Positions 3,622-63,939 of a stretch of 64,000 nucleotides of DNA are shown in pieces. A program made the translations under genes and the position numbers. Under the pieces are notes generated by a model, which saw only the letters and a program-made list of their open reading frames with translations, ran no database searches and was not told the DNA's origin. Position 1 is the stretch's first letter; each line of letters begins with the position of its first letter. Source of the stretch: Octopus sinensis (lineage: Eukaryota); the NCBI RefSeq assembly GCF_006345805.1, contig NC_043021.1, forward strand, positions 8,866,001 through 8,930,000, written 5' to 3'.

Positions 3622-4024
3622 AATATTCTTTTCTACTCTGGGCACAAAGGACCGAAATTTTGGGGGAGAGGGCCAGTCGATTAGATCGACCCCACAACGC
3701 AACTGGTGCTCAATTTATTGACCCTGAATGGCTGGAAAGCAAAGTCGACCTCGGCGGAATTTGAACTCAGAACATAAAGCCATACGAAATACCGCTATGC
3801 ATTTCGCCCGACGTGCTAACGATTCTTATTTCTTTATTGCCCACAAGAGGGTAAACATAGAAGGGGCAAACAAGGACAGACAAGGGGATTAAGTCGATTA
3901 CATCGACCCCAGTGCATAACCGGTACTTAATTTATCAACCCCGAAAGGATGAAAGGCAAAGTCGACCTTGGTGGAATTTGAACTTAACGTAAAGACAGAC
4001 GAAATACCTATTTCTTTATTACCC
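3622..4024 (-). mobile_element. SINE-A composite: alpha-tail remnant, then an alpha-tailed unit, then a beta-tailed copy
   Basis: Reverse strand reads ...aaagaaata|ggtatttcgtc...alpha tail aaagaaata|agaatcgttagc...ccccaaaatttcggtcc...agtagaaaagaat. Confidence 0.8.
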
Positions 4025-7256: not shown

Positions 7257-7319
7257 GGCGGCGAGCTGGCAGAATCGTTAGCACGCCGGGCGAAATGCGT
7301 AGCCGTATTTCGTCTGCCG
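7257..7319 (+). mobile_element. 5' head of the SINE-A copy interrupted by the Tx1-like LINE (A-box and left TSD)
   Basis: ggcggcgagctggcagaatcgttagcacgccgggcgaaatgcgtagccgtatttcgtctgccg is nearly identical to the intact head starting at 36412; the SINE resumes after 12686. Confidence 0.95.
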
Positions 7320-7483
7320 CACATGTGTTCGTGAAGTAAGAATTGCTGTTTCGTGGTGTTAATATTGTTAACAACTGTTGTTTCTTGTTAAACTGTTGAA
7401 TAACTTAACTGTTGGAGTTTTCAATTGAAAACACTTAGTGCTTGTGGTAGCACGCGTTGTTCATTCCCCCTTTGGGGGGAAGA

Positions 7484-9011
7484 ATGTCGTCTAGCATGGA
7501 GCCTACCGTTGGAGCAGAAATACTTGTTTCTCCTGTTGAGAGGAGGAAATACATGTCCGGCGAGGAGCCAACTACAGACAAGGAAATAGGGGTTTCCCCC
7601 GCTACAAGAAGGAATAGCAGAGAGGATAATATATTTGATATTTTTGGAGATGTGTCTGAGAGCTCGTCAGAACTTTCACCAGAAGAGTTTCCGACTTTGC
7701 CAGAGAACAAAGGCATTGTGTCGAAGAGAATAATTGATGTGCCTAGCATCCAGATAGAACCAAAAAATGGAAAAAAAAGTTTTGCGTTGGCTGCTGGGGG
7801 TGGAACCCAGATACTGTCGACGAATAAAAGCGAAATTATGAAATACAGCAAAATGATGGAAATAAATGACAACAGTGTGAAAATTGAACCTCCGCAAAAG
7901 TTATTACAGAAGAAAAGCAAAAAACAATAATTTTCAAAACATATTGTCTACAAAATAGAAAAATTGAAAGAATGTCAGAAGAGAAAATAGAAAAGTGCTT
8001 AAAGCCAATATTGGGCGACGTAGTATTTCTGAGAAGAAGAAAAAAATTCGGAACGGTGGAAGTAAGGTTCACCAATAAAGAAATAGCACACAAGAACTCA
8101 GTGGAAACGTTGAAAACGAACGACGTGGAGTTAATACCCTATTATATGGGGATGAGGACGTCGCGAATAAAAATTACAAGGGTCCCGCCAGAGGTCGAAC
8201 CTATGTGGTTGTTGGCGGCAGTCCTAATCAAAGAGGTAGAAAAAATTACTCTCCTCCAGGCTACCGCTACGGAAAACCCACGCTGGGATGGTAAAACAAT
8301 TAATCTTCTCATTCAAGCGGACCCTAAAATAATTCAAACAATTCCTGAGACAATTGAGGTAGGGGAGGAGAACCTCGTGGTGTTTGTTGAGGGCCGAAAA
8401 CCTCGATGTTTTTTATGTGGTCAATTAGGCCACATTCGAAGGAACTGCAAGGAAAATGAAGAAGAGGAGGAAGAGGAGAAAAAAGACAAAGAGGAAGAAG
8501 ATAAAGAAGAAACAGATGAGAAAAAACAACAAACAAAAGAAAAATACAACCAGCAACCCAGCCGAGAGCGGCGACTACTACAGAACAACGACCAAAAAAG
8601 ACTGCCAGAAGAGAAAAAGAAGAAAAAGGCATAATAGCCGTATACACTAAAGATACTGAGCTCATGAGAGACATTCAACTCATAAAGACTGTAAAAAAAA
8701 TTGATAACCTTTCAGAGGAATTTATCAATTACGACATATATGAAGTCTCAAATAAGACTTATAGAATTCTACAAAATAAGTACAGAAAGACTGTATCTTC
8801 ATTGAGATTAGATTTTAACAAGTCGATATTTCATGGATTACCAGCTCCGATCCCGCGAGAAAAGGAAAAGGTGGAGATTCCCCCTCCACCTGATAATTCT
8901 GTGTCGGTGGTGAGACGGGATTTTGACAAATCTATTTCCCAAGACCGTCCACCTCCGACCCTGGATAAAAAAAAGGTGGAGGGTCCCCCTCCACCGGACA
9001 ATCCTAATTAA
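7484..9011 (+). pseudogene. ORF1 (gag-like nucleic-acid-binding protein, one CCHC knuckle), about 510 codons if two 1-nt frameshifts are corrected
   Basis: ORFs 7457-7930, 7972-8634 and 8664-9011 join through overlapping open frames near 7890 (TSAKVITEEKQKTIIFKTY) and 8520-8630 (KKTARREKEEKGIIAVY). CFLCGQLGHIRRNC (CX2CX4HX4C) lies at 8407-8448. Confidence 0.8.
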
Positions 9012-9022
9012 ACAGGTAAGTG

Positions 9023-12000
9023 ATGGCTATTCACATTGGTTGTTTAAATGTTCATGGCCTGTTGTCAAGCTGGAAGCAAGGACGCTTTCTGAATGACATC
9101 AGGTCGAGAAATTTGGATGTAATTGTTGCAACGGAAACCCGGGTGAAGGGGCCAAGAGATCTGCTCCCCCTCCTGAACGGCTACGAGAAATACGTTTCTC
9201 CGAGTCGGGCGGGAGGTGGGGGTGGGGTGTTGGTCCTACTAAAAAGAAACCGGGTAGCCGAGAAAAAGTTGGTTTTTTCTGACCCAGAAGGCAGGCTGGT
9301 CGTTCTCGACTTGACATTCAGTTGTGGCAAGACAATCAGGCTGGTCGCTATTTATGCACCAAACATTATTGGCCCGCAAACTGAATATTTTCGTGGCCTA
9401 GGAAAGTTCCTAGCCACGTCGCATTCACTAGTAGTGTTAGGAGACTCTAATACAATATGTGCAGCACACACAGATTGTGTTGGCTCAAACTCGAACATGA
9501 ACAGAAAATGTAACACAGGCTTTCGGGATCTGCTAAGTCAATTTCAGCTAGCAGATCCATATAGGTTGGAGCACCCGAACACTCCACAGTGGACGTGGTC
9601 AAATAGTGACGGGTCTACCAGAACATATCTAGATAGGATTTTAATTAGAGAAAAAGATAAGTCCATAGTTGAGTGTCCACAGTTTTTTCTAGTCAGCTAC
9701 AGTGACCACAAGATGGTTACCTGTAAACTGACGGTAGATAAGTTGCATAGACAGGGATCTGGCTACTGGAAACTCAATACGTCCCTTTTGGCGATTGAGG
9801 AGTACAGAAAGCGGATCAAGATGTTAATACAGAGGGCATTAACAGGTACCATCATTAATAACAAATGGTGGTACGCCCTAAAAAGAGCCATCAAATATGA
9901 GTCTATTAGGTTTAGCATAAGTTTAGCTAAGAAGGGACGTAAAATAGGAGATGGTCTAGTTAAGGAACTAGAAGAAGCCTGGAGGACTGGTAATACAGAC
10001 CAAGCGAGGGTGAAAAGACTGGAGTTAAACCAGCATCTTGAAGCCCACCACATGGGAAGTATTACCAGAGCTAAGTTACGTGCAATGGGAAGTGAAGGAA
10101 TCAAAGCCGCTGGATGGGCCCGAGTGGTGGAAGCTCGGCAAGGAAATAGTTCCTCTATTCGGTCTTTGACGAATCAAAATGGTGTCTTGATAAACGAACC
10201 CGAGAAAATGTGTGAGGTCTTTCGGGAGTACTTCGCCCAGCTGTTCGGGAGTGACGGCGGTCCTGGTGGTGGGAGAGCCCTCGAGGACTTTCTTACCGGG
10301 CTGCCGTGCCTCTCGGGGTCGGATGCGGAGTCTTGCGAAGGGCCAATCACACTTGAGGAGGTGATGGAGGCTTTGGCCGATTGTAAAGCGGGTAAGTCAC
10401 CGGGACTTGATGGTCTTCCGTACGAGCTGTATAAATGTATGCCAGACTTGTTCGGGCAACTATTGACTGACGTGTACGCGAACTGGAAACAGAATGGGTT
10501 TATCCCCAGATCTGTGCGCCGGGGAGTAGTGACGTTGGTCAGAAAGGACCCGGACAAGGGGGACGTTCTAGAGAATTTCAGGCCCATCACTCTGTTAAAC
10601 GCAGAAGTGAAGATTTTGGCCAAGGTTCTAGCAAAAAGGTTGGCGCGTGTCGCGAATGGTATAGTCGGGGAGGCACAGACATGTGCCATCCCAGGCAGAA
10701 CCATTCAGGATACCCTCCATCTTATTCGCTATACCATAGAGAGGTTTGGTAATAAATCTGGCAAAGGTGGGGCATTGGTGCATTTGGACCAGTCTAAAGC
10801 TTTTGATAGGGTTGACCATCGATACCTAGCGACTGTACTTGCGCGGTTTGGCCTGGGCCTTGGCTTCCTCAGGTGGTTTATCGCTTTGTACCACAACATT
10901 GACTCGATAGTTCGGGTGAACGGTTTCCTTTCGAAGCCGTTCTGCATCAGACGCTCGGTTCGTCAAGGATGTCCGCTTTCACCACTTTTGTATGTGATGG
11001 CTCTCGAGCCATTACTGCAAAGGTTGAGTGGCATCCCGAGAGAACCAGGACTAGAGGAGTTTGTTACGGCTTTCGCGGATGATATCACTATCAGTGTAAC
11101 CACAGTGGTACGCCTACGTGAAGTAGGTAAGACTATTGAGGCTTACGAGGAGGTAGCAGGAGCAAAGATTAACCGGGAAAAGTCGGTCGGCTTGCAGCTC
11201 GGCACCTGGGTTGGCAAGTCGATGCCTTCAGACAGTGTTGTTAGGCGCTGGACGGAGGGACCGGTTAAGTTGCTGGGAGTCTGGTTTGGACCAGGCCTCC
11301 AGATAGAGAAGAACTGGACGGAGGTATTGAGCAGGGTGGCTGCAGTAGTCAAGACTTGGTCTTGGCGGTGGCTATCCCTGAAAGGGAGGGCGGAAGTGGC
11401 CAATGTGTTTATCGCATCGGTCATTACCTACCGCCTGACTGTCGTGCCCTGTCCGGATTCGTGGTTGATCAGGTTGGAGAGACAGCTCTTTCGCTTTTTG
11501 TGGAAGGGCAGGTCGCCACTTGTGAAACGCTCTGTCTGCTGTCAAAAGCCTTTAAATGGAGGTTTAGGGATGCCTTGGTTAATGATGCGCAGACATGCGT
11601 TGAGGTTGAGGCACCTCTGGATTCTCCTGGATAGTGAACGGGTGTGGTCTCCGCTGGCCAGACAAATGTTCCCTGAGTTCAAGAGTTTTTGCGAACAGGA
11701 AGCCTGGTGTTCTCGTAGACCGAGGTCGAGTGAGTGGCATAAAGAGTGCCGTAAGGCCCTCTTGCTGTTCCGGCGCTCGGGCAACGCCAGCGGTGGGGGT
11801 TCCACACGGATTTTATATAGTGGGTTGGTAGAGTCTGAATGCGACGATGGCCTGGGGTCGACTCTAGGTCTCGGATTTATTCAACTGGACAGCTTGTTTC
11901 ATCGTACATTCGGGTTGAGAACGTTGGACAACTTCCAAAAGTCCTTAACCTGGCAATGCTACAGAGGTGCCTTGCCCGTTTGGGATAAGCTCGCAAGACA

Positions 12001-12424
12001 TGGTAAACGTCAGTCGCCGACCTGTCCAAGATGCGGTGGGGACAGGGAAACCGTCCCTCACGCTATTGTTCAGTGTCCGGAGATAACTGAAATGTGGGCT
12101 TATGCTGAACATCTGTTGTCCGGCGAAGGAAGAGTACGGCTGTCGACTGAGTCAATTATAAAAATTGACCCACCGGGAGTTCTAACGAACGAAGGTAAGA
12201 ATTGTTTTCTCACGGTTGTAGCAATAGCAAAAGAGGCTGTATGGAATACTAGGATAAAAGGAATTAAGACAGGCAACTTTATCTCTGGTGACAATTTACG
12301 ATCCTTTTTTTCTTTTCATTTGAAAAGGAAACTGTGGCTGGAGAAGAGGTGTCTGTCAGAGTGTACGTTCCAAAAGAGATGGAAGTATGTTGCACGAGTG
12401 TTGTGCGTGCAAGGAACCGTGTGA
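9023..12424 (+). CDS. ORF2: APE endonuclease, reverse transcriptase and C-terminal zinc-binding domain, 1133 aa from ATG 9023, uninterrupted
   Basis: APE motifs LNVHGL, ATETR, IYAPN, LGDSN, YLDRI, SDH; L1/Tx1 linker WKLNTSLL; RT motifs KSPGLDGL, NFRPITLLN, LDQSKAFDRVDH, RQGCPLSPLLY, AFADD; GGLGMP; CPRC...H...C. Confidence 0.97.
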   Translation: MAIHIGCLNVHGLLSSWKQGRFLNDIRSRNLDVIVATETRVKGPRDLLPLLNGYEKYVSPSRAGGGGGVLVLLKRNRVAEKKLVFSDPEGRLVVLDLTFSCGKTIRLVAIYAPNIIGPQTEYFRGLGKFLATSHSLVVLGDSNTICAAHTDCVGSNSNMNRKCNTGFRDLLSQFQLADPYRLEHPNTPQWTWSNSDGSTRTYLDRILIREKDKSIVECPQFFLVSYSDHKMVTCKLTVDKLHRQGSGYWKLNTSLLAIEEYRKRIKMLIQRALTGTIINNKWWYALKRAIKYESIRFSISLAKKGRKIGDGLVKELEEAWRTGNTDQARVKRLELNQHLEAHHMGSITRAKLRAMGSEGIKAAGWARVVEARQGNSSSIRSLTNQNGVLINEPEKMCEVFREYFAQLFGSDGGPGGGRALEDFLTGLPCLSGSDAESCEGPITLEEVMEALADCKAGKSPGLDGLPYELYKCMPDLFGQLLTDVYANWKQNGFIPRSVRRGVVTLVRKDPDKGDVLENFRPITLLNAEVKILAKVLAKRLARVANGIVGEAQTCAIPGRTIQDTLHLIRYTIERFGNKSGKGGALVHLDQSKAFDRVDHRYLATVLARFGLGLGFLRWFIALYHNIDSIVRVNGFLSKPFCIRRSVRQGCPLSPLLYVMALEPLLQRLSGIPREPGLEEFVTAFADDITISVTTVVRLREVGKTIEAYEEVAGAKINREKSVGLQLGTWVGKSMPSDSVVRRWTEGPVKLLGVWFGPGLQIEKNWTEVLSRVAAVVKTWSWRWLSLKGRAEVANVFIASVITYRLTVVPCPDSWLIRLERQLFRFLWKGRSPLVKRSVCCQKPLNGGLGMPWLMMRRHALRLRHLWILLDSERVWSPLARQMFPEFKSFCEQEAWCSRRPRSSEWHKECRKALLLFRRSGNASGGGSTRILYSGLVESECDDGLGSTLGLGFIQLDSLFHRTFGLRTLDNFQKSLTWQCYRGALPVWDKLARHGKRQSPTCPRCGGDRETVPHAIVQCPEITEMWAYAEHLLSGEGRVRLSTESIIKIDPPGVLTNEGKNCFLTVVAIAKEAVWNTRIKGIKTGNFISGDNLRSFFSFHLKRKLWLEKRCLSECTFQKRWKYVARVLCVQGTV

Positions 12425-12670
12425 ATAGACGAGGAAAAAAAAAAAAGGAAAAATAAAAAGGTATCAGCGGTAGATCGGGGCTTGTGGGATCGGAGCGTAA
12501 CTTGATCATCGCTTCATTTGTATTGTTTTTGTACTGTGTATTCCATTCGATTTTTATGTATTGTATTTTAATTTTGATGTCACATTTATGTAAAATCATA
12601 TCGATTCACTGATCCCATCAGTTGTACTGTCCATATCTATGTTTGGCCCCCGGTGGGCAATAAAGAAATT

Positions 12671-13076
12671 CGTATTTCGTCTGCCGTTACGTTCTGAGTT
12701 CAAATTCCGCCAAGGTCGACTTTGCCTTTTGTCCTTTCGGGGTCGATAAATTAAGGACCAGTTACGCACTGGGGTCGATATAATCGACTTAATCCGTTTG
12801 TCTGTCCTTGTTTGTCCGCTCTGTGTTTAGCCCCTTGTGGGTAGTATAAAGAAATAGGTATTTCGTCTGCCGCTACGTTCTGAGTTCAAATTCCGCCGAG
12901 GTCAACCTTGCCTTTCATCCTTTCGGGGTCGATTAACTAAGTACCAGTTACGCACTGGGTTCGATTTAATCGACTTAATCTTTTGTCTGTCCTTGTTTGT
13001 CCGCTCTGTGTTTAGCCCCTTGTGGGTAGTAAAGAAATAGGTATTTCGTCTGCCGTTACGTTCTGAGTTCAAATTC
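12671..13076 (+). mobile_element. Remainder of the host SINE-A: 2.2 tandem units
   Basis: gtatttcgtctgccg starts at 12672, 12858 and 13041; B-box gagttcaaattcc; Nin/Deu-like ggtcgactttgcctttcatcctttcggggtcgataaa; alpha tail. Confidence 0.95.
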
Positions 13077-63423: not shown

Positions 63424-63939
63424 CCGAGGTCGACTCTGCCTTTCATCCTTTCGGGGTCGATAAATTAAGTACCAGTTACGCACTGGGGTCGATGTAATCG
63501 ACTTAATCCGTTTGTCTGTCCTTGTTTGTCCCCTCTGTGTTTAGCCCCTTGTCGGTAATAAAGAAATAAATATTTGGCCTGTCGCTACGCTCTGAGTTCA
63601 AATTCCACCGAGGTCGATTTTGCCTTTCATCCTTTCGGGGTCGATAAATTAAGTACCAGTTACGCACTGGGGTCGATGTAATCGACTTAATCCGTTTGTC
63701 TGTCCTTGTTTGTCCCCTCTGTGTTTAGCCCCTTGTCGGTAATAAAGAAATAAATATTTGGCCTGTCGCTACGCTCTGAGTTCAAATTCCACCGAGGTCG
63801 ATTTTGCCTTTCATCCTTTCGGGGTCGATAAATTAAGTACCAGTTACGCACTGGGGTCGATGTAATCGACTTAATCCGTCTGTTTGTCCTTGTTTGTCCC
63901 CTCTGTGTTTAGCCCCTTGTAGGTAGTAAAGAAAGAAAA
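63424..63939 (+). mobile_element. 5'-truncated trimeric alpha-tailed SINE-A with 15-bp TSD
   Basis: aatatgcattttctt at 63409-63423 and 63940-63954; units at 63570 and 63754 (period 184). Confidence 0.95.

Follow-up and report, generated by a model that had tools for sequence, protein, structure and literature searches.

A LINE within a SINE head

Within a 64,000-nucleotide stretch of the Octopus sinensis genome (contig NC_043021.1, positions 8,866,001 to 8,930,000; hereafter the window, whose own coordinates are used throughout), a long interspersed nuclear element (LINE) of the L1/Tx1 type lies inside a short interspersed nuclear element (SINE). The original prediction placed this LINE between A- and B-box-like motifs of the SINE head, correctly and with accurate coordinates: the SINE is interrupted between its positions 47 and 48, with an A-box-like motif to the left (7267-7277) and a B-box-like motif to the right (12698-12708), both called by eye against the A/B-box consensus. 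These motifs were the only sign of a tRNA origin of the head, for which ARAGORN returned 0 predictions and Rfam no tRNA match. The features of the locus are collected in Table 1.

Table 1. Features of the split SINE and the inserted LINE in the window
Feature	Position	Strand	Basis or remark
SINE head, positions 1-47, C48 subtype	7257..7303	+	target of the LINE; sequence comparison
Left 16-mer CGTATTTCGTCTGCCG, SINE 48-63, apparent target site duplication	7304..7319	+	position 48 target-derived
Full-length L1/Tx1-type LINE, 5,351 bp, young family	7320..12670	+	
ORF1, one CCHC zinc knuckle	7484..9011	+	Pfam PF00098
ORF2, open, 1,133 aa: APE-type endonuclease, reverse transcriptase, C-terminal zinc-binding domain (zf-RVT)	9023..12424	+	PF03372, PF00078, PF13966
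LINE 3′ tail, no poly(A): AATAAA, GAAATT, GCCC/GGGC hairpin at 12646-12658	12620..12670	+	
Remainder of split SINE, position 48 to tail: right 16-mer, body, LINE-like tail	12671..12856	+	
Second SINE unit, headless, joined at position 48 (G48)	12857..13039	+	
Third SINE unit, joined at position 48 (G48), ends just after B-box	13040..13076	+	

In an alignment of 39 copies, the window copy of the LINE departs from the column majority by 0.07%. Its first open reading frame (ORF1) is broken across three frames; loci L047, L062 and L102 carry a single frame of ~520 codons, and in the unbroken ORF1 the zinc knuckle occurs once, with the spacing C-x2-C-x4-H-x4-C. A proline-rich two-copy repeat (8803-8900 and 8911-9005, 72% identical) closes ORF1. 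The best solved relative of ORF2 was human L1 ORF2p (E 1.5e-64 over residues 5-867), with R2 at best at 1.7e-20. An APE-type endonuclease, a reverse transcriptase and a zinc-binding domain, with L1 ORF2p as the closest relative, place the element in the L1 group (L1/Tx1) of LINEs. Membership of the Tx1 clade proper is likely; a CCHC knuckle in ORF1 is a feature of that clade and is present here, and no Tx1-named sequence was found among the 120 listed ORF2 homologs or among the Atlas clusters. Public contigs from four runs guessed to be RNA extend over the element, which says nothing on transcription.

Insertion at a single SINE base

The original prediction held that the LINE family prefers one site in the SINE, and tabulating the flanks of genomic copies confirmed this, the flanks proving anything but random. 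The last 23 bases of the LINE have 146 exact copies in the genome, 138 of which continue into NGTATT, the frequency of GTATT in the SINE-rich window being 0.0014 per position. Allowing at most one mismatch, GTATTTCGTC gave 26 matches where 3.7 were expected, a number reached in 0/100 shuffles. When the first 30 3′ ends were taken in genome order, 30/30 continued into SINE position 48, including four that fail the strict pattern and one that arrives there after a 7-nt slippage repeat; 27 of them belong to the young family and have a 5′ end, one is truncated and two belong to an older subfamily. Likewise, all of the top 3′-end hits that were fetched (38/38, one a duplicate locus) retained their 5′ end intact, preceded by a complete or partial SINE head. 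LINEs have been regarded as sequence-specific where more than 20% of copies share one flank type (PMC4494074; this and the other PMC-numbered sources are cited from excerpts of their text), a share well below the 138/146 and 30/30 found here. We consider it almost certain that insertion of the LINE is SINE-specific.

On the 5′ side there were 97 exact ends, with 89 matches in head context and three in array-junction context, counts that come from slightly different patterns and are not strict subsets of one another. Since 97 5′ ends stand against 146 3′ ends, the counts suggest that full-length copies are fewer genome-wide than in our sample. The final few bases, GAAAT[A/T], occurred as short repeats at the 3′ junctions of L036/L079, L045, L111, L132 and L187, as expected from slippage at the start of reverse transcription.

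The base at position 48 of young-LINE targets was C in 58/100, G in 41/100 and A or T in 1/100, compared with A or T in 16/100 free heads (p 1.5e-4; hand counts over the listed rows). The older subfamily, which is 87% identical to the young LINE and has a different 5′ region, occupied the same SINE site in 28/30 loci (16 in heads, 12 at array junctions), none of them with C48. All five of its 3′ ends that were seen fell at position 48; only 2/20 fetched stretches held a 3′ end, because the copies are deleted or interrupted. One LINE sublineage had inserted at C48 in 14/14 cases vs 20/37 (p 0.002, uncorrected), and for this reason target subtype looks heritable by lineage, via either protein or RNA pairing. 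The alleles of this C48-only sublineage (7866, 8103, 8967, 9515, 10353, 11109 and 12247) recur in public runs X1, X7 and partly X8 (organism A), and the sublineage may be shared across species and predate the main burst.

Young LINE copies differ by 0.55% on average and the LINE ends by 0.3-1.3%, whereas the flanking SINE heads are 10.7% and the downstream bodies 9.3% apart (all pairwise; indels or a different context removed nine heads and seven bodies from the flank distances, and L044 and L015, duplicates of the L032/L003 locus, were left out of later scripts). The insertions were therefore independent, and heads so divergent were pre-existing targets. Had head, LINE and body instead been copied as a composite unit, with the flank as part of the element, the presence of both flanks and an identical 5′ junction in almost all copies would follow, but flanks diverged by 9-11% would not surround elements so little diverged internally. 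Moreover, base 48 is the same on the left and right of the LINE in 49/49 loci yet varies among loci, and three loci cannot derive from one composite: L109 is a 5′-truncated copy at the same base with an overlap of only CGT (3 nt), L114 is inserted at an array junction with a SINE tail and no head upstream, and in L101 the LINE lies within a SINE bearing an older tail. Copying as a unit is thereby refuted for everything beyond a ~15-nt 5′ piece. Random insertion followed by selection, or an assembly artefact, is refuted by the 30/30 and 138/146 counts: selection against 5-kb insertions could favour repeats, and A-run frameshifts in many copies are possibly sequencing errors, but neither accounts for insertion at one exact base, the 146 copies are spread over numerous contigs and have unique outer flanks, and the head-LINE junction also occurs in contigs of other public runs.

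Four sister families (A-D) have ORF2 products 55-59% identical to that of the SINE-targeting LINE and similar tails, and an Argonauta hians protein is 62% identical to ORF2. In a tree built by a quick method with a midpoint root and no named Tx1 reference, the SINE-targeting LINE was sister to these families together with P0001 and the Argonauta protein (SH-aLRT support 100 for the group and 93 for the split). The sisters insert in microsatellites, either (ATT)n (8/8) or (TATC)n (12/12), and TAT is common to these and the SINE site; a target shift from microsatellite to SINE is plausible, its direction being put forward as a hypothesis. The endonuclease differs from that of the sisters in the loop preceding YLDR, and its GDSN motif (9440-9451) is fixed in 50/50 copies, with GDWN in the sisters and GDFN in other relatives. 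Family A (L149-L156; the (ATT)n insertions) is young, with 96-99% amino acid identity among copies, and forms tandem LINE arrays in L150, L151, L155 and L156. Families B, C and D (L157-L168) account for the (TATC)n insertions, and mixed tandem neighbours lie within one microsatellite tract in L158 and L160. Three older-subfamily copies on contig C25 (L172, L175 and L177) have the same outer flank and represent a local segmental duplication, not three insertions.

The 5′ junction, the shared tail and the SINE arrays

The original prediction also described a perfect 16-bp target site duplication (TSD). In the window copy it is indeed perfect, with CGTATTTCGTCTGCCG repeated at 12671-12686, but the left and right 16-mers were identical in only 18/49 loci, and their 7.1% mismatch exceeds the divergence of the LINE itself more than tenfold (the 49 loci exclude L108, L109, L111 and L116, as well as L036, L055, L062, L065 and L106, which have indels in the right copy). 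Mismatches were found at 1/343 sites in positions 48-54 vs 55/441 in positions 55-63. Rare variants of the right copy were present on the left in 2/28 cases (position 61 left out), and odd left haplotypes recurred at unrelated loci, three and two times. The left copy had T61 in 10/14 members of one LINE sublineage vs 8/37 (p 0.002, uncorrected; L099 and L064 also excluded), and right T61 was unlinked. Because left variants track LINE lineage and the two sides often differ, the element very probably carries target sequence at its 5′ end, so that most of the apparent duplication would be element-borne; positions 55-63 of the left 16-mer in the window were likely copied from element RNA. An RNA starting with target bases would explain why the 5′ junction is fixed and truncation is rare, in contrast to the sister families B, C and D, several copies of which are visibly 5′-truncated.

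A long predicted hairpin (z -3.64) has the insertion site at the edge of its loop. Symmetric cutting of this quasi-palindrome was considered and rejected: a mirror nick between positions 43 and 44 would make the left base 48 RNA-derived, but it matches the right base in all 49 loci, and 12/28 older-subfamily copies lie at junctions without the palindrome. Positions 43 and 48 pair in the predicted head hairpin and covary (T/G 74 and G/C 45 of 150), which may be plain subfamily linkage. Arrays follow 1/10 C-heads vs 9/21 G-heads (p 0.11), a difference that does no more than hint at C48 being an escape variant.

The SINE is likely a member of the octopus tRNA-derived OK/OR1/OR2 and Nin/alpha-domain SINEs, and the text excerpts consulted mention no LINE targeted to these. 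OK, OR1 and OR2 were reportedly described as tRNA-derived octopus SINEs by Ohshima and Okada in 1994. The element is ~230 bp long, with 97,317 exact tails genome-wide, 25,160 of which are followed by ANGTATTTCG, and it falls within the size and copy number by which SINEBase delimits SINEs (<1 kb, interspersed, at least 100 copies; PMC3531059). The same definition asks for a head with at least 60% identity to a tRNA, a point on which the A- and B-box-like motifs are the present evidence. Its TSDs are 15-19 bp long, and a script found TSDs of at least 10 bases at 30/62 unique SINE flanks, some of them in simple repeats. When 141 SINE tails were sorted, 66 joined position 48 of another unit, 13 joined position 15 and 62 ran into unique DNA; this sample is enriched for LINE loci, and two or three of the 66 are misclassed look-alikes. 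The unique flanks often start with GGTA (18/62) or TATA (15).

Several further joints were noted. The joint at position 15, where the tail is followed by AGAA[A/T]CG, was seen at window position 3826 (minus strand) and in L037, L043, L046, L051, L054, L067, L068 and L143; SINEs with an older tail join there too (L186, L190 and L198), and no LINE was seen at that position. In the 3′ flanks of L066, L115 and L031 the SINE tail is followed by an antisense SINE body at GGTAC/GGTAT, which may be a third internal hot spot of the SINE. Beside the LINE-like tail, the same SINE head and body carry three further tails (window 42743, 47880, 47316, 26138 on the minus strand and 3792 on the minus strand; L016, L024, L030 and L119), and four tails on one head and body suggest partner swapping.

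That SINE array junctions fall at the same nucleotide as the LINE insertion was likewise anticipated. In the window, gaaata is joined to gGTATTTCGTC at 12858, 13041, 40032, 47317, 58750, 59550, 59734 and, on the minus strand, 4007 (the coordinates mark SINE position 49, and the joint lies 1 base earlier), with variants near 63570 and 63754. Adjacent units share the same rare variants in L061, L064, L057, L105, L106 and at window 63570/63754, and near-identical neighbouring units point to local amplification. The terminal units of arrays carry three different older SINE tails, which requires no fewer than three separate events at that one base. In L047, a SINE with its own head lies within an older SINE at position 48, flanked by a true 16-bp duplication of rare variants.

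The tails of LINE and SINE are 81-91% identical over 34-42 nt, sister LINEs having this tail less closely: over the last 30 nt of 132 SINE tails, identity was 0.80-0.86 to the SINE-targeting lineage vs 0.73-0.77 to the sisters. On this evidence, together with the TSDs and the same-base joints, the further claim that the family also mobilises the SINE is in part upheld, and it is probable that the LINE lineage mobilises the SINE at least partly. However, as the SINE also inserts elsewhere (62/141 tails) and sister LINEs have similar tails, the LINE is not necessarily its only driver. The older subfamily, 84-94% identical to the copy at L111, fits the divergence of the SINE (8-11%), and with its G48 targets it also fits as the main seeder of the arrays.

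Proposed mechanism and its rivals

The position and independence of the insertions and the common tail are matters of observation. Building on them, we propose, with a probability of about 75%, that a young L1/Tx1-type family inserts between SINE positions 47 and 48, where its APE domain likely nicks, and that the SINE, whose tail is of the same clade, is likely mobilised in part by it, thereby likely renewing the target pool. According to the model, a bottom-strand nick between positions 47 and 48 would prime reverse transcription from the hairpin-GAAATT 3′ end, and a top-strand nick ~16 nt downstream, a stagger taken from the SINE TSDs of ~15-19 bp, would leave a 3′ overhang. The LINE RNA would begin with a copy of the target (~49/55-63), so that the end of the complementary DNA could anneal to the overhang and prime the second strand; the resulting copies would be mostly full length, with an invariant 5′ junction and a pseudo-TSD whose inner part is of donor type. 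The SINE would use the same machinery more loosely, at sites starting with GGTA and with TSDs of 15-19 bp. When landing in another SINE at position 48 it would seed a headless array, which then expands locally, most arrays likely stemming from the older G48-preferring subfamily and not from the young family.

Several observations weigh against this model. Array junctions carry G48 in 93/100 and C in 2/100 cases, vs 41 and 58 in young-LINE targets, and with the rare variants common to neighbours this shows that arrays are not simply insertions of the young family. Nested insertion of a SINE with its own head into another was found only once (L047) among all loci examined. Compared over 50 nt, the SINE tail matches the SINE-targeting lineage (0.745-0.756) no better than sister family B (0.752), shuffled sequences are as stable as the hairpin of the LINE tail (z -0.05 and -0.72), and the young LINE, at 0.55%, is far younger than most SINE copies, at 8-11%. 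Six LINE copies starting with CG share 2/2 informative variants between the two sides and may keep a true TSD. Finally, the nick positions and the RNA 5′ end are deduced from sequence. The driver-passenger loop of the original prediction accordingly retains a LINE at one SINE base, but with junctions that match the older subfamily and many locally duplicated arrays it is looser than proposed, and we lean somewhat against its being active today.

A passive target, although we judge it unlikely, would account for part of this. Here the LINE is SINE-specific, the SINE acquired its tail from a different, or extinct, clade member, the arrays go back to one or a few old junctions that multiplied through multi-unit retroposition and unequal exchange, and no loop operates today. 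The excess of G48 at junctions, the rare variants common to adjacent units, the age gap between SINE and young LINE, and the similar tails of sister LINEs, whose TATC/ATT targets match the TATA/ATAT class of SINE flanks, all agree with it. It is opposed by the three older tails that end arrays, by the nested insertion with a true TSD in L047, by the GGTA that begins 18/62 unique flanks, and by an older subfamily with a G48 bias and a divergence close to that of the SINE.

A second possibility, doubtful in our view, is that RNA-DNA pairing, through 3′ read-through into the downstream SINE and the 5′ target piece, mainly sets the target, with a loose TAT(T/C)-cutting endonuclease common to the sisters. 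Read-through annealing has been proposed for R1Bm and SART1 (PMC7265360). In its favour, one sublineage used C48 exclusively (14/14), the sister targets contain TAT, CG-start copies had C48 in 11/11 listed cases (hand count), and the only diagnostic endonuclease change in the C48-only sublineage, T165P, was present in 7/13 copies scored. However, the C48 and T61 tests on this sublineage concern one lineage and are not independent; head context is preferred 89 to 3 though junctions are about as common (25,576 vs 25,160), and the bases concerned lie outside the proposed RNA; and the endonuclease itself departs from that of the sisters before YLDR and in its invariant GDSN.

Only tentatively can our model be extended to a closed loop with co-evolving targets. 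A microsatellite-targeting clade would have given rise to a lineage inserting in its own passenger SINE, with RNA-borne target bases as a heritable choice, and would have seeded tens of thousands of headless arrays; its preference would have moved from G48 to C48 and then to both, and the SINE would have spread a G43-C48 variant that keeps the hairpin and avoids self-insertion.

Known systems and significance

Dewa inserts in tRNA arrays, and L1 and Alu insert in the A-rich tails of earlier copies, the passenger thus leaving sequence that the driver can cut. However, the TT/AAAA motif used by L1 is low in information and L1 also inserts elsewhere, whereas here ~95% or more of copies use one base of the SINE head. 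The closest known system is the crocodilian Tx1-Mar/SINEU pair, in which a Tx1-type LINE and a SINE have a common preferred site in a multicopy mobile element, tandem SINEs arise by sequential insertion and truncated copies exclude hitch-hiking (PMC4494074). There, however, the target is a third element, Mariner-N4_AMi, with two preferred regions, and the excerpt reports no LINE with the SINEU-1 3′ end (PMC4494074); in the octopus the SINE itself is the target, the tail is shared and the site is a single base. Tx1L in Tx1D, Keno in U2 small nuclear RNA (snRNA) genes and Kibi and Koshi in (TC)n and (TTC)n likewise encode APE and are specific for multicopy targets, which for Kibi and Koshi are microsatellites, as in the octopus sister families; none of them, as summarised there, targets a SINE (PMC4494074).

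R1 elements of the melanogaster type obtain precise 5′ junctions from RNA-borne target sequence (PMC2718515), and in R1, R1Bm and SART1 target sequence in the RNA anneals to the cut site (PMC2718515, PMC7265360). These elements belong to the R1 clade and use ribosomal DNA (rDNA) or telomere targets, and the piece that they carry lies upstream, with a 9-bp deletion (PMC2718515, PMC7265360). In contrast, the piece probably carried by the octopus LINE lies downstream of the presumed nick and mimics a TSD, and its diverged targets allow donor bases to be separated from target bases. Thirteen recently active L1-Tx1 families have been reported in an octopus, in an account whose excerpt does not contain the word "target" (PMC13282606). 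Literature searches, with Repbase and subscription journals outside their coverage, returned neither a SINE-targeted LINE nor a passenger SINE serving as target, in line with the original prediction, which knew of no description of such a loop.

Known sequence-specific LINEs have targets that are made by the host or come from an unrelated transposon, whereas the LINE described here targets a passenger SINE belonging to its own clade, and the target pool can therefore grow with the driver's own activity. The system also offers a route to tandem SINE arrays, and its sister families, 55-59% identical and with different targets, form a natural series for mapping endonuclease specificity. A perfect apparent TSD, it warns, may be element-borne. 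Because the targets are ~10% diverged and the LINEs near-identical, every insertion keeps a record of the origin, target or RNA, of its junction bases; such records are unreadable in homogenised rDNA or snRNA targets, and here they make second-strand priming in target-primed reverse transcription testable from genome sequence.

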